Shown: positions 14,872 through 45,709 of the stretch, piece after piece
Numbering within the stretch: the stretch's first letter is position 1
Layout: each line of letters starts with the position of its first letter
From: an uncultured Bacilli bacterium
GTDB lineage: Bacteria; Bacillota_I; Bacilli_A; RF39; UBA660
DNA: 50,701 nt
Reading direction: 5' to 3'
Assembly (NCBI GenBank): GCA_944371545.1
Contig: CALVXT010000001.1
Location: forward strand, 1 to 50,701
The notes under the pieces: generated by a model
The model's input: the letters and a program-made list of their open reading frames with translations, nothing else
The model's database searches: none
Told to the model about the DNA's origin: nothing
Program-made: the position numbers and the translations under genes

Positions 14872-16158
14872 TTATTTGTACTCCTTTTTTGTTCGAATTT
14901 TAGTTAGTATTTCACTTACTTTTGTTGTATCTTCAATTTCTTTTAATCCTTTAAGAATTGATGTTAATTCTTGTCTTTTTTGATGTAATGCTTTGATATT
15001 TTTCTCACTTTTTTCTTTTTTTATTTGATTTATAAGTTTATTTCCAATATAACCATATGGCTCTAGAGCATCGCATAAATCATCAAAGAAGTATTCATAT
15101 CGCGAATTTTGACAGCGTTCAGGAATGCTCATTTCTTTTCTAATTCTTCTTAATATTGCTTTAGCTTTTTTTGTTGTTAATTTGAATTCTTTTGTTCTTA
15201 TAAGCTCTGAAAGATCATCAAGATTAATTTTTTGAATTATAATTACATCATCCATATCTCGTACTTTTTGAGGAATATTTAATTGTAGATATAAATCATA
15301 AAATACATCATCAAATGAAATTTCATCTAAAAAATTAAAAGAAAGAATCGATTGCTTTTCTTTTGGATTTTTTGGATTACTTACTAGAATATTTTGTACA
15401 TCAATTAACTCATATAGATTTAATAGCCAAGTAATTTCTAATCCGTTATCCATATATAATAGTTCTTGTTGAAATGATTTTTCGTTGCTACGAAATGCTT
15501 GGAATAACTTTTCTATTTCACACAGGTCATCAAATACTTCTTCTAAAGTTCTTATATCCCTAGTACTTAAGATTAAATCTTTTAGCATTTCACATCTATC
15601 TATTAAAGACATTTTAGAAATTAAAAATTTATTTTGCCATGAAATACGAACTTCTTTATCTTGAATGACTTCTGTTTCTAAAAAAATATTTTTTATTTTT
15701 GAGATATCATGTATTTTTAAGTATTCTAAAATTTTTTTAAATTTCTCATTTTGATCTATTAATATGTTAATTTCATGTTGTAGTTGTTCCATTTTTAATT
15801 CATCTTGTTCTTTGTATATGATTCTTTTTGTTTTTGAATCAAGTATACAATTTTCCATCGATATTTTATTTTTTTCTCTACATAATTGTTTTTTAAGGGA
15901 TTCATTTTCTATTATCAAATTTTTAATGTATTCTAATATATCAATATTTTTATAAGGTATGTTATTTTCTGGTTTAGAAAATATGGTCAAAAAATTATTT
16001 AAAATTGTTTCTCCATATATGCTTGGGGAAGCAATTTTTTCTGATTTTACATCCTTTAAATATGCATATAAATCCATTAATGCCATTACGGCTTCAAAAT
16101 TTATTTTATATGACTCTTTAAGTGTTGATAACTCCGTTTCTTCATTTTTTTTCATCAA
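14872..16158 (-). CDS. Hypothetical protein (428 aa), helical, no recognisable domain
   Basis: Long uninterrupted ORF, divergent from the PBP gene. No motif recognised. Confidence 0.6.
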   Translation of the reverse strand: MMKKNEETELSTLKESYKINFEAVMALMDLYAYLKDVKSEKIASPSIYGETILNNFLTIFSKPENNIPYKNIDILEYIKNLIIENESLKKQLCREKNKISMENCILDSKTKRIIYKEQDELKMEQLQHEINILIDQNEKFKKILEYLKIHDISKIKNIFLETEVIQDKEVRISWQNKFLISKMSLIDRCEMLKDLILSTRDIRTLEEVFDDLCEIEKLFQAFRSNEKSFQQELLYMDNGLEITWLLNLYELIDVQNILVSNPKNPKEKQSILSFNFLDEISFDDVFYDLYLQLNIPQKVRDMDDVIIIQKINLDDLSELIRTKEFKLTTKKAKAILRRIRKEMSIPERCQNSRYEYFFDDLCDALEPYGYIGNKLINQIKKEKSEKNIKALHQKRQELTSILKGLKEIEDTTKVSEILTKIRTKKEYK

Positions 16159-16261
16159 AAGCCCTTCTTTCTTATCTTTATTAAAGCATATTTTTCTATA
16201 TTAAACAATTTTTTTCTTATATTTTTTTCTTTTTGATTCATACTAACTTTAGGTGTTTTGC

Positions 16262-18202
16262 ATGAAAAAATTTAAATTTATATGTCGATTGCTTCTTTTT
16301 TTCCTTTTAAGTGGAATTATTGTTTTAACTGGTATTTATGTTTATGCATTTTTTTCACCTAAATTAGAGCTTAAAAATATGGGAAAGGTTTTTATTTATG
16401 ATTATGAAAATAATTTGGTTTATCAAGGTTCTGGTTCTAACGATTGGATTAGTTTAGAAGATATCTCTCCTAATTTAATTAATGCTGTTATTAGTGTAGA
16501 AGATAAAAACTTTTATAATCATCATGGTTTTGATTTTTTAAGAATTGGAAAAGCTTTTCTTACGAATATTCAAAAAAATACTAGAATTGGAGCTTCAACT
16601 ATTAGCCAACAATATATTAAAAATATGTTTTTAACTTTTGATCAAACTTGGGCTAGAAAAATAGAAGAAGCTTTTTTAACAGTTGAATTAGAAGTTCATT
16701 ATAGTAAGGATGAGATTTTAGAAGGATACTTAAATACGATTAATTATGGTGAAGGTAATTATGGAATTGAAGATGCTAGTCATTATTATTTTAACAAAAG
16801 TAGTAAAGATTTGACTTTGGAAGAAGCATTGATGTTAGCTGGAATTCCTAAAGCACCAAGTATTTATAATCCTGTTAGCGATTATGATGCTTGTATTGAA
16901 AGGGCTTGGATTGTTGCGCTTACTATGTTAAATAACGGATATATTACAGAAGAAGAATATAATAATTTATTTCAAGAAGAAATTCCTATTTATGGAAAAA
17001 GAACACAGAATAATTCACAAACGATTCTTTATTATCAAGATGCTGTAATGGAAGAGCTTGCTGAAATCAAAACGATTCCTACTTCTTTAATCGATTCCGG
17101 CGGCCTTAAAATATATACAACATTTGATATGAATGCTCAAACAAAGATGGAAGAGAATATTTTAAAATATATGGAAAATCAAGAGGAATTGCAAATTGCA
17201 AGTGTTATGGTTAATCCCCAAACTGGAGGTGTTTTAGCTTTAACTGGTGGACTTAATTATGCGAAAAGTCAATATAATCGCGCGACCCAAAGTAAAAGAC
17301 AAGTTGGAAGTACTATGAAGCCTTTTTTATATTATGCTGCTTTAGAAAATGGACTTGTCTCTTCTTCTACTTTTAAAAGTGAAAAAACGACTTTTTATTT
17401 TTCAAATGACCAAAGCTATTCCCCAAATAATTATAACGATATTTATGCAAATGAAGATATTACTATGTCTGCTGCCATTGCTTTTTCGGATAATGTTTAT
17501 GCCGTTAAAACTCATTTGTTTTTAGGCACCGATGTTTTAGTCGATACAGCTCATTTAGCAGGTATTAAAGAAGAGCTTGTTGGCAATCCTTCTCTTGCAC
17601 TTGGAACTAGTGAGCTTAACATGATGGATTTTGCCACAGGATATACTACTTTAGCTAATGGTGGAAATCAAAAGGAACTTTATTTAATTGAACGAGTTGA
17701 AGATTTAAATGGAAATGTTTTGTACCAACATAAGGATAAACAAGATTATGTTTTAAATAGTAATAGTGTTTATATTTTAAATGAAATGCTTACTAGTACA
17801 ACAAATTCCGCTTACACAGATTATACAACTCCTACCGCTTTATCTTTGGCCTCTAAAATGAGTCGTAAGTATGCTTTAAAAACTGGAACAACAAATACGG
17901 ACTCGTGGGTTGCTGGATATAATCCTGAGCTTTTAATGATGGTATGGATTGGAAATGATGAAGCAAAAGAGATCGATAGTACAGCTAGTTATTATTCGAA
18001 AAACATTTGGCTAGATACAATGGAGGCTTATTTAGAAGGACATGAGGCAGTTTGGTATGAAAAGCCTCAAAATGTTATTGGACTTATTCGTAATGGAATA
18101 ACTGGTAAAGAAGATTTAGAAGGAAAAAATAGTACTGTATTTTATTATGTTAAAGGAACTGAGATAGCTCCTATTGCTGTAAATAAAGAGGATAATACTT
18201 AA
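16262..18202 (+). CDS. Class A penicillin-binding protein (GT51 glycosyltransferase + transpeptidase)
   Basis: N-terminal TM anchor, GT51 motifs (EDKNFYNHHGFD, GASTISQQ), and transpeptidase motifs SxxK (STMKP) and KTGTT. ATG 16262 is preferred over GTG 16253. Confidence 0.9.
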   Translation: MKKFKFICRLLLFFLLSGIIVLTGIYVYAFFSPKLELKNMGKVFIYDYENNLVYQGSGSNDWISLEDISPNLINAVISVEDKNFYNHHGFDFLRIGKAFLTNIQKNTRIGASTISQQYIKNMFLTFDQTWARKIEEAFLTVELEVHYSKDEILEGYLNTINYGEGNYGIEDASHYYFNKSSKDLTLEEALMLAGIPKAPSIYNPVSDYDACIERAWIVALTMLNNGYITEEEYNNLFQEEIPIYGKRTQNNSQTILYYQDAVMEELAEIKTIPTSLIDSGGLKIYTTFDMNAQTKMEENILKYMENQEELQIASVMVNPQTGGVLALTGGLNYAKSQYNRATQSKRQVGSTMKPFLYYAALENGLVSSSTFKSEKTTFYFSNDQSYSPNNYNDIYANEDITMSAAIAFSDNVYAVKTHLFLGTDVLVDTAHLAGIKEELVGNPSLALGTSELNMMDFATGYTTLANGGNQKELYLIERVEDLNGNVLYQHKDKQDYVLNSNSVYILNEMLTSTTNSAYTDYTTPTALSLASKMSRKYALKTGTTNTDSWVAGYNPELLMMVWIGNDEAKEIDSTASYYSKNIWLDTMEAYLEGHEAVWYEKPQNVIGLIRNGITGKEDLEGKNSTVFYYVKGTEIAPIAVNKEDNT

Positions 18203-18551: not shown

Positions 18552-19784
18552 CTAATCATTTTTTTTAATATTAATTGTCATTTGATAATTTCCATTAAGG
18601 TCTACTTCATCTAAAGTTATTTGAAAACCTTGTTTTTGCATTTTATCAATCATATCTCGAACTTCATTAATAGCAGTTTTTAAATCTATTCCTTTTTCTT
18701 CTTCAACTATTTGCTTATAATTTGGATCTAATTTAATAACAGAATCCATTGGGTCAACAATTTTTTCGGTTGATGTTTCTTTAATTTCTTCAATTTTATT
18801 ATTTTCTGGAACTTGAGAATCTGAAAATAAAAATGGTATCACCGATTCTTCTTGTGGTTGTTGAGTGACTGGCTCTGATGGAGGTGTTGATGATCCGATA
18901 TCATCTAAAACCTCTATTTCATCCATTGCAGTATTATCATTTTGAGTAGATGATGGTGTTTCAATCATTTGCATATTTGCGGCTTCATCTTCTAAAAAGT
19001 TAAAAAATTTGTTTGGAATATTTCTTGGTTCTTCAGTTTTTATTTCAGACATATTTTCTTTTTGTTCATTTTCCATAGTTTTAACCTCTTTCGTTGGTTC
19101 TTTTTGATTTATATCACTAGAGTTGTTAATTATTTTTGTTACATCTGGTGCAATATTTACTAAAGGAACATCTTCATTTATTTCTCCTTTTGCTTTTTTT
19201 ATTTCTAAATCCAATTGTCGAACAGTAAGGCGCTTTGTGAGAATTTTTTGTAACCATTTTGGTTGTTCTTCTTTTGGTAAAACTAATAAACTTCTGGCAT
19301 GGCGTTCACTGATTTTTTCCTGTAATAATGCGTCTTGAACTTCAGGTGCTAAATTTAAAAGACGTAATTTATTAGCAATCGAACTTTGACTTACTCCCAT
19401 TTTTTCTGCAAGTTGTTCTTGAGTCATATACCCACGGTCTAATAAATTTTTATATGATTTTGCTTCTTCAATTGGTGTTAAATTTCTTCTTTGAATATTT
19501 TCTACTAAGGCAATTTCAGCACTTTTATTGTCGTCTATATCTGATATAATTGCAGGCACTTGTCTTAATCCTGCCATTGTTGCTGCTTTAAATCTTCTTT
19601 CTCCAGCAATAATTTCATATTTATTTCCTAGTCTTCTTAAAACTAAAGGTTGAATAATGCCATGCTGTTTAATTGATTCTGATAATTCTTTTAAACCTTC
19701 TTCATCAAATGCTAGTCGTGGTTGAAAACGATTTGGTATTATATCCTCTATTGCTACTTGAAGTACCTTTTGATCTGTATTCAC
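18552..19784 (-). CDS. noc: ParB-family protein of the Noc (nucleoid occlusion) type with a long internal insertion
   Basis: ParB N-domain with the arginine patch (IIAGERRFKAA). The HTH region GVSQSSIANKLRLLNLAPEVQDALLQEKISERHARSLL matches B. subtilis Noc (GKGQSTIANKLRLLKL...ITERHARAL) rather than Spo0J. The C-terminus (FQITLDEVDLNGNYQMTINI) is also Noc-like. Residues ~200-365 are acidic, Pro/Gln-rich extra sequence. Confidence 0.8.
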   Translation of the reverse strand: MNTDQKVLQVAIEDIIPNRFQPRLAFDEEGLKELSESIKQHGIIQPLVLRRLGNKYEIIAGERRFKAATMAGLRQVPAIISDIDDNKSAEIALVENIQRRNLTPIEEAKSYKNLLDRGYMTQEQLAEKMGVSQSSIANKLRLLNLAPEVQDALLQEKISERHARSLLVLPKEEQPKWLQKILTKRLTVRQLDLEIKKAKGEINEDVPLVNIAPDVTKIINNSSDINQKEPTKEVKTMENEQKENMSEIKTEEPRNIPNKFFNFLEDEAANMQMIETPSSTQNDNTAMDEIEVLDDIGSSTPPSEPVTQQPQEESVIPFLFSDSQVPENNKIEEIKETSTEKIVDPMDSVIKLDPNYKQIVEEEKGIDLKTAINEVRDMIDKMQKQGFQITLDEVDLNGNYQMTINIKKND

Positions 19785-19935
19785 AAAAATCAGCCCCTTA
19801 CGCCTATTTTATCTATATATCATTTTAACAATAATTTCCAAAATAGGCAATATTAATTTAAAATTTTGTTAAAATTCTAGTTTTTTCTTCCCATTTTCTA
19901 TTACAAATACTATAATTAATTTATGGTGAATTTCT

Positions 19936-21069
19936 ATGTTTGAAAAATATAAAGGTACAATTGATCTTTTTAAAGTAATTTATGATGAATATCATTATCA
20001 AGCGGTATCTTTAGAGGATCTTTATTCTAAGCCATTTATAGAATTAGAAGTATATGGTGTAGATGCTTTGTGCTGGATTACTTTTCAAGGTGAAAAATAC
20101 TTATTTAAAGAAGTGAAGGACTATGAATATAATATTTGGGGAGAGTTAATTTCTGAAGAATTTGCTAAATTATTTGGATTTCCTTGTGCTTCTTATCGAT
20201 TTGCAGCATTTGGAGATCGTTATGGTGTGATTACGAAGAGTTTTTTAAAAAAAGGAGAATCTCTTCGCTTGGGAAGTGAAATTTTTCAAAGATTTATTAA
20301 TCGTTATGTTTTAAAAAACAAGGAAATTCATAATATATTAGATGATCAGCAATTTTTGTCGCTTTATCAAATTCCTCCCTCTTTTTTAAAGCTGGATTCT
20401 TATGATCAAAAAAGATATATTTTTAATCATTTAAACAATTTGGATCAAATTTGGTCTATTATTGAAAATAATAAAAAAATTCACGCAGATGAGAGTCAAA
20501 ACATTATTTCTTCCTTGCTTAATCTTTTAATTTTTGATATTGTAACTTTACAATTAGACCGACATCCGAATAATTGGGGTTATATAAAAAGTGATCAACG
20601 TTATTTACCAAATATTCTTTTTGATAATCAAAAGTCTTTTGGACTTGGATATATTAATATGTCTGACAGGGTTTTAGATTTTAAAAATGAGTTAATGAGC
20701 AGTCGTTTTACTCAAAATTTAGAAGTCTTAAATCATTATTTATACGATACAGGTCTTAATTTAACACTTTCTGTAGATAACATAATTGATAGTTCTCTTA
20801 GAAAAAAAGATAATGCATTAAAAGTATTACAAGATTTGCTTGAAAAATCGGATGAGGATACTTGTAAAAAAATAATTTCTACTATCAATAAAATCCCCAA
20901 AAATTTTTTAGAAAATATTATATGTATGTTAGAAGAAAAAAATGGAATAACAATGAATAATAACTTATATTTCTATATTACGAATCTTTTTTCATTGCAT
21001 TTTTCAAACATCCAAAATATAACTCATTTATATTTGGAAAGGAGTACCCAAAATGAGAAACGAATTTAA
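19936..21069 (+). CDS. HipA-like / PI3-4-kinase-fold putative Ser/Thr kinase
   Basis: Catalytic-loop-like LQLDRHPNNWG (D-x-H-x-x-N, as in HipA DGHAKN) and a downstream ILFDNQ (Mg-binding Asp candidate). The N-terminal part (EKYLFKE ... NIWGELISEEFAKLFG) resembles the HipA_C nucleotide-binding region. Confidence 0.6.
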   Translation: MFEKYKGTIDLFKVIYDEYHYQAVSLEDLYSKPFIELEVYGVDALCWITFQGEKYLFKEVKDYEYNIWGELISEEFAKLFGFPCASYRFAAFGDRYGVITKSFLKKGESLRLGSEIFQRFINRYVLKNKEIHNILDDQQFLSLYQIPPSFLKLDSYDQKRYIFNHLNNLDQIWSIIENNKKIHADESQNIISSLLNLLIFDIVTLQLDRHPNNWGYIKSDQRYLPNILFDNQKSFGLGYINMSDRVLDFKNELMSSRFTQNLEVLNHYLYDTGLNLTLSVDNIIDSSLRKKDNALKVLQDLLEKSDEDTCKKIISTINKIPKNFLENIICMLEEKNGITMNNNLYFYITNLFSLHFSNIQNITHLYLERSTQNEKRI

Positions 21070-21457
21070 TGATTTTCTTCCAATTTTTCAAACTTTTTTA
21101 GATAAAGGTCTTTCTATTCAAGATGCTTTAAGTTTCATCCTTAATAATAAAAATAGAATAATTAATCAAAATTTATTATTTGATGATTACTATTTTATTT
21201 ATAATGGTATGGAACTTTATTGTCTTTTTATTCCTAAAAACGATAATGACTATTTATGGTCTATTTATGAAGAACAAGGCTTCTTACCTTTACAATGTAA
21301 AAGTGAAAATTTAGGCACTTTAAAAAATGGCGATGCAATAATAGATAATATTTTAAGAGCTGGTCATAAATATGCTGAAACGGGAAATGGAAATAAGGAA
21401 CTAGCTCGTTCCTTAAAAAAATATCAATTTAATTCTTCTGGATACCATTTAAGATAA
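21053..21457 (+). CDS. Hypothetical protein (134 aa) translationally coupled to the HipA-like kinase
   Basis: 17-nt overlap with the kinase ORF. SD AAAGGAG lies 9 nt upstream of ATG 21053. No recognisable domain. Confidence 0.55.
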   Translation: MRNEFNDFLPIFQTFLDKGLSIQDALSFILNNKNRIINQNLLFDDYYFIYNGMELYCLFIPKNDNDYLWSIYEEQGFLPLQCKSENLGTLKNGDAIIDNILRAGHKYAETGNGNKELARSLKKYQFNSSGYHLR

Positions 21458-21460
21458 ATA

Positions 21461-23313
21461 TTATTCAATTTCTTTTTGAAATTCTTTTATATATTTTTTT
21501 CTTATTAATGGTAAAACTTGTTCAGTTAATTCTATAGTTGTATCTAAGGTACTTTTAAATGTAGTATCTATAAAACTACATTTTTTTTCTTTCTCTAAAA
21601 ATTGGTGATAAAAAAAGGTTAATGTATCATTAAATTTATTAATTTTATTAAAATCTGCAATACTATTTAATCCAAAACCTATTCTAGATAAATATTCTTT
21701 TTGCAATAAAACTAGAGGATCCATGTAATTTATAATGTGAAAATCAATTGATTGTTTGAATAAAGCTAAATATTTTCTTTGAATTTCCAAATAAGTATTT
21801 TTTGAGATTTCTTTATTTAAAAACTGAATATAACAGTGAATTAATTCATTTAATAAACCCCTTGTAAATACTATTCCTTTTATTTGAGAAATATTTTCTA
21901 AGTTAGAAGTATTTTCAATTAGTTTTATATCGAAATTTGCTATTTGAAAAAAGTCATATAAACTTTCTATGATTCTTGAATTATCATATTTTGGAGCTCC
22001 ACTAAAATCGATAACAAAAGATGGATTTGACGAGCATAATTTTTTTAGTTGGAGTAACTCTTGTCTTTGAGCGTTTATCTTTTTTAACTCTTGATAATAT
22101 TTTTCTTTTCCACAAAACACTTTATCTCTTAAAAAAAGATCTTCTTTTTTACCAAATACAAGTTCTAATGCTGCTTTTAAACGTTTAAAAATAGGTAGAT
22201 CTTTATTTTCATTAAAAATCAAACTTTTATAAATATTTGTATAATACCATTTTTGTTTTTCTTCTCCTCTTTTAAATGAAGAAAAATCTCTTTGACCATT
22301 TTTTTCAAATTTTAAATATAAATCTTCGACATTATTAATTTTATCAGCACATATAACTAATTTGTTTCGTAAAGGAAGTTTTTTTGTTTCTTCGATTGTA
22401 TGTTGTTTTCTTTCTTCCCAAGATAAAGATTTGTCTGGCTCAGATGCTCCCATAACTAAAGAGGCAATATCCCTACCAAATTCCTTTTCAATATCTTCTA
22501 TAGTATATTTTGTGTCTTCTACTACATCATGTAAATAACCTGCTGCGATGACACGATCATCAAAGCCATATTGTTCTAAAATCATAGCTACACTGATAGG
22601 ATGAATTATCATTGGTTTATCAGGTTCACTTTTTCTTTTTTGATCTTTATGAGCTTCAATTGCAAAATATTTTGCTTTTATTTTTATATCCTGTATATTA
22701 TTAACTTGTAAGTATTTTAAAACAAATTTAGCTTTACTGCTAAGTAATGCTTCAACTTCTGCGTTCATTTTTTCATAATCTGTATCTTTACAATATGTAG
22801 GAGCATATCCCATTTTTCCATATTTTTTCTTAATATAATTATATGCTCTTTCAATTTTTTGCTCTAATGTCAATTCCGGATAATTTTTACTTGAATATAA
22901 ATGTGTTCGTTCAATAGATTTATTTAAATTTGTCGTTCTATCTGCTGAAGATAGAATCTTTCCATAATCATTTCTTGGTGTATATTCTAAACTTGATCGA
23001 TGATCTTCAATTGCATCTTTCATTATTCTTCTTTGTTCTTCGGTAAAAAATTCTTTTATTTTTTCATCTTCATAAAAAATTTTTGCTGAAAGTATTTCAT
23101 GTTGATCTTTGTCAATATGATGTCAAGATCATGAAAAGAAGCGATTGTATAAAGCATATCTATGTTTATATTTTGAAATTGACTTGAGAATTCTAGACAC
23201 CTTCTTATTACATATTTAATGTGCTCTATTCCGTGTCCCTCATCATTTTTTGCATACAAGGGAAATATTTCATTTTCAATGTATTCTTTTAGTTTTGGAT
23301 TAATATTATTCAT
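21461..23313 (-). pseudogene. Frameshifted fusion gene: HD phosphohydrolase domain + RelA/SpoT-type (p)ppGpp hydrolase HD domain + unknown C-terminal domain
   Basis: The 85-aa ORF (23056-23313) carries H...HD (HGIEH ... ASFHDL). The 520-aa ORF frame is already open from 23122 (HHIDKDQHEILSAKIF...AIEDHRSS...SSADR), which continues the same HD family. It then has a SpoT-like HD_4 region (AHKDQKRK...HPISVA...AAGYLHDVVEDT). One missing nt near 23123 separates the two frames. Confidence 0.7.
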
Positions 23314-27824: not shown

Positions 27825-27838
27825 ATTTCCCGGGAAAT
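27825..27838. promoter_or_regulatory. Noc-binding-site (NBS) palindrome ATTTCCCGGGAAAT, intergenic mnmE-jag
   Basis: Exact match to the 14-bp B. subtilis NBS consensus. Embedded in the 22-bp palindrome AATTATTTCCCGGGAAATAATT (27821-27842). Confidence 0.75.
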
Positions 27839-39187: not shown

Positions 39188-39203
39188 TGTTTCACGTGAA
39201 ACA
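39188..39203. promoter_or_regulatory. parS 1
   Basis: TGTTTCACGTGAAACA, a perfect 16-bp palindrome. Confidence 0.9.
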
Positions 39204-39234
39204 TTAGTATTTTGAATTTAATGTTTATAACCAA

Positions 39235-39250
39235 TGTTTCACGTGAAACT
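39235..39250. promoter_or_regulatory. parS 2
   Basis: TGTTTCACGTGAAACT, with one terminal mismatch. Confidence 0.85.
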
Positions 39251-39293
39251 ATATTTAATTTGTTTTAAATATCTTGAATGTGTATAAGTTATA

Positions 39294-39309
39294 TGTTCCA
39301 CGTGAAACA
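39294..39309. promoter_or_regulatory. parS 3
   Basis: TGTTCCACGTGAAACA, identical to the canonical B. subtilis parS. Confidence 0.9.
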
Positions 39310-39470
39310 TATCTAAGTTTTACTGATTTTATTTATATGTAATAAAATCAATTTGTTAATAATTATCTTTGTTTTAATATATTATTTTGAATTAATATCA
39401 TTTTTATATAAGTATATAATTTGTTTTTTTCTTCAATATTATTTATTTTAAATGAAGTGTTTATAACTCA

Positions 39471-39486
39471 TGTTCCACGTGAAACA
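39471..39486. promoter_or_regulatory. parS 4
   Basis: TGTTCCACGTGAAACA, identical to the canonical B. subtilis parS. Confidence 0.9.
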
Positions 39487-39565
39487 TATATGTTTTTTTA
39501 TGAAATTATTTTTTTATAAATATTTTTTATAAATTTCTTTTTTTTGTTTCCACTGTTGATAACAA

Positions 39566-39581
39566 TGTTTCACGTGAAACG
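39566..39581. promoter_or_regulatory. parS 5
   Basis: TGTTTCACGTGAAACG, with one terminal mismatch. Confidence 0.85.
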
Positions 39582-39788
39582 TTGGATAAAATTTATTTTA
39601 AAATTTTGTTTATTTTTTACTAAAAATTTTAATACTTTTTTATATTATAGTGAATATGTGTATAAGTTTTATATTTTTCGTTAGTAAATAAGAATATTTC
39701 TTTATTATAAAAATGATTCAATCATTTATTATTTTTTTGTAATAATAATTTGCTTCGTTTTTTTAGTTGTGAAAATTTCAAAATAAAT

Positions 39789-39802
39789 ATTTCCCGGGAA
39801 AT
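39789..39802. promoter_or_regulatory. Noc-binding-site palindrome ATTTCCCGGGAAAT inside the parS array
   Basis: Exact 14-mer, located 22 nt upstream of parS 6. Confidence 0.75.
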
Positions 39803-39824
39803 AATTTTGATGTTTATAACCCGA

Positions 39825-39840
39825 TGTTTCACGTGGAACA
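39825..39840. promoter_or_regulatory. parS 6
   Basis: TGTTTCACGTGGAACA, the reverse complement of the canonical TGTTCCACGTGAAACA. Confidence 0.9.
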
Positions 39841-39935
39841 TATGAAAAAATGTTTTTTTTTGAAAGTTTATAACTATTTTTAGAAAAAATTAAGACATCT
39901 TTTAAAAAAATCATTATTTATTTGGAATTTCACAA

Positions 39936-39951
39936 TGTTTCACGTGAAACG
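39936..39951. promoter_or_regulatory. parS 7
   Basis: TGTTTCACGTGAAACG, with one terminal mismatch. Confidence 0.85.
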
Positions 39952-42224: not shown

Positions 42225-42521
42225 ATGAATATGCAAAGTATTATGGCACAAGCTCAAAAAATGCAAAGAGATTTACAAAAAAAGAAGGAAGAAATTAATG
42301 CTCAATTATTTCCCGGGAAATATGAGTTTGTTGAAGTGACGTTAAATGGTAAGAAAGAAATGGTAAGATGTAAGATTGATAAAGAGCAATTGGATGCTTC
42401 AGATATTGAACTTTTAGAAGATTTTATTGTATTAGCAACAAAAGATGCAATTCAAAAAATTGATAAAGAATTTCAAGCAAAAATGGGACAATATGCTGGA
42501 ATGTTAGATGGTTTGATGTAA
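42225..42521 (+). CDS. ybaB: YbaB/EbfC-family nucleoid-associated protein
   Basis: 98 aa, with the MQKMQRDLQKKKEE N-terminus typical of the family. Located between dnaX and recR. Confidence 0.9.
   Translation: MNMQSIMAQAQKMQRDLQKKKEEINAQLFPGKYEFVEVTLNGKKEMVRCKIDKEQLDASDIELLEDFIVLATKDAIQKIDKEFQAKMGQYAGMLDGLM
42308..42321. promoter_or_regulatory. Noc-binding-site palindrome ATTTCCCGGGAAAT inside ybaB
   Basis: Exact 14-mer. It encodes LFPGKY in the ybaB frame. Confidence 0.7.
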
Positions 42522-45015: not shown

Positions 45016-45709
45016 TTGGTTGTTTGATTATCCAAATTTAAAAATATATCAATATCAAGAAGGGTTTAAGTTTTCTTTAGATTCAATTTTGTTAGCAGAA
45101 TTTGCTACGATTCGAAAATCAGATGAAAAAATACTTGATTTATGTACTGGAAATGGAGTAATACCTATTCTATTACATTTTAAATATCAAAAAAATATAG
45201 TAGGAGTAGAACTTCAAAAAGAAATTGCCAGTTTAGCTAGAGATTCAGTAAAGGAAAACGGTATGGAAGATGCTATTTCCATTATTGAGGATAATGTTTT
45301 AGAGTTGAAAAATTATTTCCCGGGAAATAATTTTGATGTTGTTCTTTCAAATCCTCCTTATTTTAAGTTTCATCATCCGAATTTTGTGAATCAAAATTCT
45401 TTAAAAAGTATCGCTAGACATGAAGTTACTATTTGTTTAGAACAATTAATTGAAATGGCTAGTTATTTACTAAAAAATAAAGGAAGGTTTTATTTAGTAC
45501 ATATTCCAGAGCGATTGGATGAAATTATTGTTTATGCAAATAAGTATGGATTTGGAATAAAAAAAATTCAATTTATTCATTCTAAAATATCTGAGCCACC
45601 TATCATTGTATTGGTAGCTTTAGTAAAAAATGGTAGATTTGGTTGTCGAATCTGCCCTCCACTTTCTATTGAGGGAGTAGAGTCTTATCAAAATTTATTT
45701 AAGAATTGA
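44996..45709 (+). CDS. SAM-dependent methyltransferase, YabB/TrmN6-like (tRNA m6A37)
   Basis: ILDLCTGNGVIPI SAM motif and NPPY (LSNPPYF). Synteny with B. subtilis yabB. Confidence 0.8.
   Translation: MMKKQLNWLFDYPNLKIYQYQEGFKFSLDSILLAEFATIRKSDEKILDLCTGNGVIPILLHFKYQKNIVGVELQKEIASLARDSVKENGMEDAISIIEDNVLELKNYFPGNNFDVVLSNPPYFKFHHPNFVNQNSLKSIARHEVTICLEQLIEMASYLLKNKGRFYLVHIPERLDEIIVYANKYGFGIKKIQFIHSKISEPPIIVLVALVKNGRFGCRICPPLSIEGVESYQNLFKN
45315..45328. promoter_or_regulatory. Noc-binding-site palindrome ATTTCCCGGGAAAT inside the methyltransferase gene
   Basis: Exact 14-mer at the centre of the 26-bp palindrome AAAATTATTTCCCGGGAAATAATTTT. It encodes YFPGNN. Confidence 0.7.

Follow-up and report, generated by a model that had tools for sequence, protein, structure and literature searches.

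A long-linker, helix-less form of Noc beside the replication origin of uncultured gut Bacilli

Introduction

Close to the replication origin in a stretch of 50,701 nucleotides (positions 1 to 50,701 of contig CALVXT010000001.1, assembly GCA_944371545.1; this whole stretch is referred to below as the window) there is a gene for a 410-residue protein of the ParB family. The question that it raises is which of two related proteins it specifies, the ParB (Spo0J) that reads parS sites or Noc, the nucleoid-occlusion clamp, which reads the Noc-binding site (NBS), and, if it is a Noc, how such a protein might operate with a short N-terminus and with some 165 additional residues lying between its DNA-binding and C-terminal domains. 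The host is a member of an uncultured family of low-GC gut Bacilli with genomes of about 1 Mb, and is represented by a metagenome-assembled genome of 1.23 Mb in 164 contigs that is 86% complete. The window spans the origin region in a chromosome of about 27% GC, the GC skew flipping near 30 kb, with rnpA-yidC-jag-mnmE-mnmG-rsmG on one side of the origin (oriC) and dnaA-dnaN-gyrB-gyrA on the other.

The answer argued for here is that the protein is a Noc orthologue, i.e. a ParB paralogue belonging to the Noc clade, with a lineage-specific architecture. Taken jointly, Noc identity, this architecture and loading at NBS restricted to the origin region are considered probable, as judged from sequences and models across the family.

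Identity of the protein

An initial annotation, made from the sequence of the window, had called the protein Noc-type, and this call is borne out by the best matches in the Protein Data Bank (PDB), Foldseek and NCBIfam, by a phylogenetic tree, by the C-terminal domain and by the specificity residues. Pfam recognises PF02195 ParB_N (E 2.5e-34) followed by PF17762 HTH_ParB (E 7e-33), and finds no match beyond residue 199. When the sequence is searched against the PDB the top entries, 7NG0 and 7NFU, are of the Noc of Geobacillus thermoleovorans (E about 1e-56), with which the protein shares 52% identity in its N-terminal and DNA-binding domains; Bacillus subtilis Noc (7OL9) comes next, and Noc entries outrank all those of ParB/Spo0J. 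The same ranking, with Noc first (7NFU, 7OL9), is obtained when an AlphaFold2 model, built with 44 sequences and confident for the N-terminal and DNA-binding domains (predicted local distance difference test, pLDDT, 70-90), is submitted to Foldseek; the DNA-binding domain superposes on that of the Noc–NBS complex 6Y93 with a template-modelling (TM) score of 0.88-0.90 and a root-mean-square deviation of 1.5-1.9 Å. The NCBIfam model TIGR04285 (nucleoid_noc) scores 278 bits, against 180 bits for the generic parB model.

At the other end of the chain the last 45 or so residues align with the C-terminal domains of canonical Noc proteins (D..AIN..R......G..V..EE.DFED.YQI.IKI.K) and not with those of Spo0J, as had been proposed; in the AlphaFold2 model this part forms, with modest confidence, a helix (368-384) and two strands. 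The alignment and phylogeny against Noc and Spo0J that the initial annotation recommended were carried out as an IQ-TREE analysis of 72 sequences, comprising 30 orthologues from the family, 20 Noc-type and 19 Spo0J-type sequences (from other Bacilli families and from the genome itself) and three sequences from the PDB. Support for the split between the Noc side and the Spo0J side is 95 in the Shimodaira–Hasegawa-like approximate likelihood-ratio test (SH-aLRT), the protein grouping with the Noc of B. subtilis and Geobacillus, and the long forms of the family are monophyletic (SH-aLRT 100); this was a quick search, and its supports are to be taken with reserve. With the Noc proteins of B. subtilis and G. 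thermoleovorans the protein thus shares its two Pfam domains, its C-terminal domain and its side of the tree, as well as the Q/K/R specificity residues, the GERR and ENxQR motifs, an identical 16-bp NBS and an origin location close to rsmG.

Both of these motifs, which concern the binding of cytidine triphosphate (CTP), are intact; the last residue of VENIQR, R99, falls just outside the Pfam boundary of ParB_N. In ParB of B. subtilis E78 (within G77-E78-R79-R80) and E111, which lies 33 residues further on, are needed for CTP hydrolysis (PMC8494293), and the equal spacing of 33 residues suggests that E62 and E95 are their equivalents here. A possible loss of the catalytic glutamate, through the change of Glu to Lys, Arg or Gln at the residue after ENxQR (R100 here), was considered and rejected, as in the numbering of PMC8494293 it is the intact E95 that matches E111.

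At the residue after ENxQR (window codon 19485-19487) about 95% of the members of the long-linker family have Lys, Arg or Gln, where Glu is found in 20/20 sampled Spo0J and in 21/22 Noc-types from outside the family (19/20 from genomes together with both PDB Nocs). One helical turn away from R100 is Q98, the counterpart of Q120 in the apo-Noc pocket that accommodates the membrane helix, and the change could represent a reversal of charge matched to the acidic linker described below.

Specificity residues and the second ParB

The helix-turn-helix sequence reads GVSQSSIANKLRLLNL...ISERHARSL, and a MAFFT alignment places Q133, K139, N144 and R161 in the columns that hold QKKR in Noc and R.xG in Spo0J, confirming that the four specificity positions had been correctly assigned. 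The residues in these columns are QKNR in the present protein and QKKR in both PDB Nocs, while 20/20 Spo0J-type sequences have R-x-x-G. In Caulobacter numbering the positions are Q173, K179, K184 and R201, of which Q173 reads A1 and R201 reads C6 of the NBS provided that Lys occupies at least one of positions 179 and 184 (Jalal et al. 2020, PMC7383237). Three of the four residues therefore match the Noc set, position 184 being Asn (N144) in place of the Lys of Noc, and because a single Lys at either position suffices, QKNR is predicted to be NBS-specific. The Asn had been described as a novel residue, which it is not: QKNR is the commonest state among the Noc-type proteins sampled from other Bacilli families (11/19), and occurs in 104/144 parsable long forms of the family. 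Together with the exact 16-bp NBS present in the genome, these residues support the earlier prediction that the protein would bind NBS.

It could still be asked whether the protein is instead the chromosomal centromere ParB, reading parS, or a hybrid of ParB and Noc with dual parS/NBS specificity, particularly as it is the sole ParB-family gene in the window and as seven parS sites (39188-39951) lie 20 kb away. This is, however, thought very improbable. The protein carries Q133 and R161 at both of the positions that switch specificity, where all sampled Spo0J have R and G; it has no LGRGL peptide, with which ParB activates ParA, and no adjacent ParA; and a canonical Spo0J and Soj are present elsewhere in the genome, as they are in about 58/61 genomes of the family. 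While it shares the fold and the clamp motifs of Spo0J/ParB, and has loading sites that are clustered at the origin as parS sites are, it differs in its specificity residues, its N-terminus and its C-terminal domain.

The description of the protein as the only one of the ParB family holds within the window but not across the genome. When the genome was searched for a second ParB, as the initial annotation had advised, a second ParB_N match was found on contig C75: a canonical Spo0J of 296 residues (starting METKRKALGRGLEQL, then GKSRSHVTNMLGLLSLP..ISMGHARAL), with RMSG-type specificity and an N-terminal LGRGL motif, situated directly after ParA/Soj. The implied absence of a parS reader is consequently not borne out, and nearly every genome of the family has both proteins; across 61 of its genera, about 58 genomes hold both a Spo0J of about 295 residues and a long Noc-type protein. 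In the family noc and soj-spo0J are often about 2 kb apart, in the order noc-soj-spo0J; in the source genus they are separated.

Some further observations concern the soj-spo0J locus. The soj/parA gene is split, with its 5' part on C142 (2791-3030) and the rest on C75 (5828-6451), and because the contig ends overlap in sequence (..NDFENDIYDVITGVCEIKDAIIKTKFKN) these two contigs should be joined. After soj-spo0J come an MscS-like gene and a small, putatively DUF951-like gene, as in B. subtilis. A 263-residue ATPase of the ParA/MinD superfamily, encoded on contig C43 (1579-2328), is neither Soj nor MinD (43 bits with the MinD model) and may be an orphan ParA-like or a TadZ-like protein.

Distribution of NBS sites

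Four exact copies of ATTTCCCGGGAAAT are present in the window, on both flanks of oriC, against 0.33 matches in shuffled sequence even when up to two mismatches are allowed. Over the 1.23-Mb assembly the NBS occurs five times as an exact match, never with one mismatch and four times with two; the corresponding counts for four control palindromes were zero, zero and two to ten. All five exact sites extend to the 16-bp TATTTCCCGGGAAATA, and five of the six CCCGGG sequences of the assembly fall inside them. The fifth site lies next to metG and a tatD-like gene on C137, a small contig; these genes are near the origin in B. subtilis, which suggests an origin location for this NBS too.

The same restriction is seen across the family. 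Thirty genomes contain 62 exact NBS, of which 42 are on the contig that carries noc, and all 42 of these lie 0.9-26.8 kb from noc (median 17 kb), mostly across oriC on the side of the parS array. Exact NBS are present in 21/23 genomes of the family, as compared with 6 among the roughly 178 genomes sampled from other Bacilli. The census counts exact matches, so that diverged sites would be missed by it, although in the assembly from which the window comes there are none at one mismatch. Scattering over the chromosome arms was not found: one to five exact sites were counted per genome, and those on noc contigs are within 27 kb of the gene. This is quite different from the situation in B. subtilis, where NBS are scattered around the chromosome (PMC4331003, PMC8429893). 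In the literature searched (open-access text) there is no description of origin-restricted NBS, nor of a helix-less or long-linker Noc.

The N-terminus

Only 16 residues precede PNRFQPR, about 23 fewer than in B. subtilis Noc (residue 4 of the query aligns with residue 27 of the 7OL9 chain), so that alpha1, alpha2 and the spacer of Noc are missing. Adams et al. (2015) reported this N-terminus to be extremely conserved across every Noc that they examined, and NocNdelta10 to lack function in B. subtilis (PMC4331003); the long-linker family and the short sister clades described below are exceptions to this picture.

In view of this it might be supposed that the short N-terminus is an artefact of annotation or assembly, a wrong start or a frameshift concealing the helix, as could happen in a fragmented metagenome-assembled genome. 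Such an artefact is extremely improbable. A longer N-terminus is impossible because there is an in-frame TAA nine codons 5' of the GTG start, leaving only eight upstream codons open (the whole open frame is 418 residues), and a good Shine-Dalgarno sequence precedes the start. Furthermore, the N-terminus is equally short in 30 genera and in 150 independent representatives: in all 30 orthologues from family genomes, as in the best representatives of 150 clusters at 50% identity, PNxxQPR is preceded by 14-18 residues (rarely by as many as 29), and the complete proteins are 340 to 804 residues long. The family is extensive, with more than 150 such clusters, from dozens of genera of the human and animal gut. 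The absence of the N-terminal helix that had been noted is therefore real, as shown by the short start, the upstream stop and the recurrence throughout the family.

Outside the family Noc-types are 251-286 residues long, with two long outliers in another family, and some begin with tiny hydrophobic starts (MNIFKNQKDK, MFSFFSKDD, MALFNRKDKEE). Others, of 251-256 residues (L043, L044, L047-L052, L055), start directly at the ParB N-domain, and no exact NBS 14-mer was found in their genomes. Those of L043, L044 and L047-L052, the sister group of the family in the tree, belong to the Noc clade, have QKNR or QKKR and likewise lack the N-terminal helix, but have a short basic linker only. As this sister group also has no N-terminal extension, loss of the helix probably predates the linker. 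One of the proteins with a hydrophobic start, L053 (G134:C11, 111900-117600; start MALFNRKDKEE), from another Bacilli family, is an independently long Noc-type of 675 residues ending ...DGFWNLFK, with three exact NBS within 9 kb of its gene, which suggests that Noc has been elaborated separately a second time.

The acidic linker

Where B. subtilis and Geobacillus Noc have a short basic linker, the 410-residue protein has about 165 residues that are extra in comparison with canonical Noc-types of 251-286 residues, rich in Glu, Asn, Ile, Pro and Ser. The initial annotation was right to call this part, residues ~200-365, acidic and Pro/Ser-rich, but its Gln-rich character is not confirmed, the composition showing no special enrichment in Gln. 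Secondary structure in the AlphaFold2 model of the linker is limited to two short helices, 215-221 and 259-269. The insertion is also not peculiar to a single gene, being standard in the Noc proteins of the family, and it is in Noc, not in ordinary Spo0J, that this family-wide feature occurs; the condition that the initial annotation had named as refuting it, an insertion common in the lineage's ordinary Spo0J, is thereby satisfied in part. The linker is acidic (median charge -27) in each of the 125 sequences whose two flanking domains could be located, with a median length of 201 residues and a range of 94-557.

A six-fold variation in length, together with tandem repeats in some members (L033, L035), would be in keeping with a linker that is mostly a neutral expansion of low complexity in a reduced genome, the protein being a relic of Noc that marks or insulates origin DNA and that lost its occlusion output along with the helix. 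That several genera are without motifs A and B (see below), and that NocNdelta10 does not function in B. subtilis (PMC4331003), would fit with this, but it is nevertheless an improbable explanation: the linker is acidic in 125/125 cases, implying selection on charge, invariant islands persist among homologues at 69-98% overall identity, motif B is found in several subclades, and the gene and exact NBS are kept in nearly every genome of this family of about 1 Mb.

In these homologues the islands (..DIN, PNKFFNFLEDE.A.M, IEVLDD, PFLF, N.IEEIK and VDPMDSVIKLDPNY) are separated by hypervariable spacers, and between residues 317 and 356 the invariant columns are P317, N329, I331-E333, D344-M346, V349, K351-P354 and Y356. 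Three of the islands, referred to as motifs A, B and C, are defined in Table 1. Motif B contains KFFNFLEDE, which is at residues 259-267 as had been claimed and is invariant in 44 homologues. Using iterative hidden Markov models (HMMs; regular-expression scans overlooked most instances), motif A was found in about 100/180 family sequences and motif B in about 75/180, always in the order A then B and some 45 residues apart. By eye, a degenerate motif B can be made out in further genera, and ETLDF-like variants of motif C in others. A resemblance of IEVLDD/ETLDF to the tail of FtsZ was also considered but dropped, the likeness to the C-terminal peptide of the organism's own FtsZ (DTEFDIPSFLR) being too weak.

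Candidate roles of the linker motifs

In the mechanism that is suggested, dimers would load at the few exact 16-bp NBS palindromes flanking oriC (four in the window and the fifth on C137) and, once stimulated by NBS, would presumably close as CTP clamps and then slide. The result would be an origin-confined nucleoprotein zone alongside or on top of the ParB-parS complex, unlike B. subtilis, where it extends along the arms, and the output step would be carried by the linker motifs.

For that output step the reading preferred here, which is tentative, is that the KFFNFLEDE helix makes a weak, avidity-dependent contact with the membrane, much as the Noc and SepF helices do, and so may tether or shield the origin in cells that have no Min system. 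Structure and amphipathicity in the region of residues 250-275 were examined, as the initial annotation had proposed: the helix predicted by AlphaFold2 (259-269) has pLDDT above that of its flanks, and with a hydrophobic moment of 0.52-0.65 motif B ranks with the most strongly amphipathic parts of the linker (the N-terminus of B. subtilis Noc gives 0.43). Tethering of the origin to the membrane is plausible in Firmicutes because RicO of Staphylococcus aureus does this (bioRxiv 10.64898/2026.03.06.710092). The analogy is one of function only: RicO binds origin-proximal sites in a sequence-specific manner and has an amphipathic helix, but it is of an unrelated family, its helix is C-terminal and its bridging of origin and membrane has been shown experimentally, whereas for the 410-residue protein membrane binding is a suggestion.

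A second analogy, with SepF, bears on the acidity of the motif. Family SepF proteins begin MGLSKLKKIFADEDED or MALSKLKKLFSDEEEN, the pattern being M(G/A)LSKLKK(I/L)F(A/S)DE(D/E)E, and the succession of Lys, hydrophobic residue and Phe followed by an acidic run recalls NKFFNFLEDE, so that by this analogy an acidic flank alone need not speak against a role as a membrane helix. The likeness is qualitative, and there are differences: the SepF helix has three Lys and is N-terminal, while motif B has one and is internal.

A number of points must be set against the account given so far. As regards identity and loading, the TIGR04285 score is below the curated cut-off of 315 and its match is in two stretches, which is attributed to the linker splitting the match and to the missing N-terminus; the amphipathic helix (residues 1-10) that defines Noc is absent throughout the family, together with the conserved alpha2; and the missing part of an assembly that is 86% complete and in 164 contigs could hold more NBS. 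As regards membrane contact, motif B has a net charge of -2 with a single Lys and is placed within a linker of charge -24, as compared with a charge of +2 for the N-terminus of B. subtilis Noc, features that are unfavourable for binding to anionic membranes; it was found in only about 42% of family sequences; genera L015-L019 and L023 are without both motif A and motif B; and its HMM gave no significant match to canonical Noc N-termini or to the Noc and SepF of B. subtilis. Homology of motif B with the lost N-terminal helix was accordingly discarded as unsupported. Conservation, predicted helicity and amphipathicity would favour the membrane as the target of KFFNFLEDE, and acidity, absence from roughly half of the family and the lack of similarity to Noc N-termini would disfavour it; membrane and protein partner are both candidates.

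A role in contacting protein partners is rated at least as likely as membrane contact, even if it too falls short of an even chance. On this alternative the protein would make no contact with the membrane, and the islands (A, B, IEVLDD, PFLF and VDPMDSVIKLDPNY) would be short linear motifs that recruit divisome, segregation or replication proteins to the origin clamp. Analogous recruitment is known for the N-terminal peptide of ParB, which serves for ParA, and for KorB, which binds KorA. That five to six invariant islands stand apart from one another in a disordered region of otherwise hypervariable sequence is consistent with such a function, as are the acidic-hydrophobic character of FFNFLEDE, IEVLDD and PFLF, which is typical of protein-binding helices and not of cationic membrane anchors, and the isolated helices of modest confidence in the AlphaFold2 model, as for segments that fold on binding. 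The sister Noc-types of 251-256 residues, having neither helix nor linker, also point this way, since they imply that membrane binding is not obligatory in that Noc subclade. Against it, the partners are candidates only; the HMM search found motif B in no other open reading frame (ORF) of the genome, so that there is no clue from a shared motif; and the motifs are not universal in the family.

The most far-reaching version of these proposals is that, in this large family of gut Bacilli without Min, Noc has been rebuilt as a second origin-specific CTP clamp beside ParB-parS. It would load only at one to five NBS interleaved with the parS array or adjacent to it, the acidic linker would deliver its output, and an internal, SepF-like helix, KFFNFLEDE, would attach newly replicated origins either to the membrane or to some component of the divisome, thereby setting the division site; as a complete scheme this is possible but rather unlikely.

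Division machinery in the family

MinD was found above the curated cut-off in none of 31 family genomes, all matches being Soj-like. SepF is present in 30/30 good relatives; it was not found in the source assembly, 86% complete, and its absence there is most likely a gap. A phmmer search of the ORFs of the genome, using MinD, SepF and DivIVA of B. subtilis, returned only Soj, a ParA-like ATPase and a GpsB-like ORF.

Feature coordinates and neighbouring genes

Table 1 Features of the noc-type gene, its product and the exact NBS in the window (residue numbers refer to the 410-residue protein).
Feature	Window position	Strand	Basis and remarks
noc-type gene, 410 residues	18552..19784	minus	GTG start 19784-19782, stop codon 18552-18554; ORF list
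Shine-Dalgarno AAGGGG	19794..19799	minus	9 nt upstream of GTG start; direct sequence reading
N-terminal CTP-binding domain ParB_N, residues 6-98	19491..19769	minus	Pfam; PNRFQPR, GERRFKA (E62), start of VENIQR (E95, N96, Q98)
Helix-turn-helix DNA-binding domain, residues 101-199	19188..19484	minus	Pfam; specificity residues Q133, K139, N144, R161
Acidic linker, intrinsically disordered, residues 200-365	18690..19187	minus	AlphaFold2 pLDDT 33-55, composition; net charge -24
Linker motif A, residues 213-226 (PDVTKIINNSSDIN)	19107..19148	minus	Consensus VDINKIKNNAEDINP...LL; D224, N226 invariant; helix 215-221
Linker motif B, residues 257-273 (PNKFFNFLEDEAANMQM), predicted amphipathic helix	18966..19016	minus	P257-E267 invariant in 44 homologues
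Linker motif C, residues 289-295 (EIEVLDD)	18900..18920	minus	L293, D295 invariant
Further linker islands, residues 317-356: PFLF, NKIEEIK, VDPMDSVIKLDPNY	18717..18836	minus	Invariant columns
Noc-type C-terminal dimerisation domain, residues 366-410	18555..18689	minus	Alignment, AlphaFold2, second TIGR04285 stretch
Exact NBS (16-bp TATTTCCCGGGAAATA), predicted loading site	27825..27838		Left of oriC
Exact NBS	39789..39802		Inside parS array 39188-39951
Exact NBS	42308..42321		Window motif search
Exact NBS	45315..45328		Window motif search

Several neighbouring genes may be mentioned for completeness. The interval of about 3.5 kb between noc and rsmG (window 19936-23313) contains two ORFs without a Pfam match, of 377 and 134 residues and overlapping by 17 nt, as well as a convergent gene for a 520-residue HD_4/HD-domain protein, preceded by an 85-residue ORF with an HD motif at its end. 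The opposite side of noc holds a gene for a class A penicillin-binding protein (window 16253-18202; Transgly and Transpeptidase domains) and, between this and the argS operon, an ORF of 428 residues without a Pfam family (14872-16158).

Implications

The current model of Noc comprises an essential, “extremely conserved” N-terminal helix and NBS that are scattered (PMC4331003, PMC8429893), and here a large clade keeps the clamp and exact NBS without either of these. If coupling between DNA and division persists in these organisms a different effector would be required, be it an internal amphipathic motif or recruited partners, and the family would then amount to a natural experiment on which parts of Noc are truly required. 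If the proposal is true it would also provide a second example, beside ParB, of a CTP clamp restricted to the origin. At the level of annotation, the genes concerned are labelled just “ParB/RepB/Spo0J family partition protein”, and it should be borne in mind that their presence is no proof that a real ParB is missing. Finally, for Bacilli with reduced genomes and no Min system, a Noc of this kind may offer a possible explanation of how the septum is placed.

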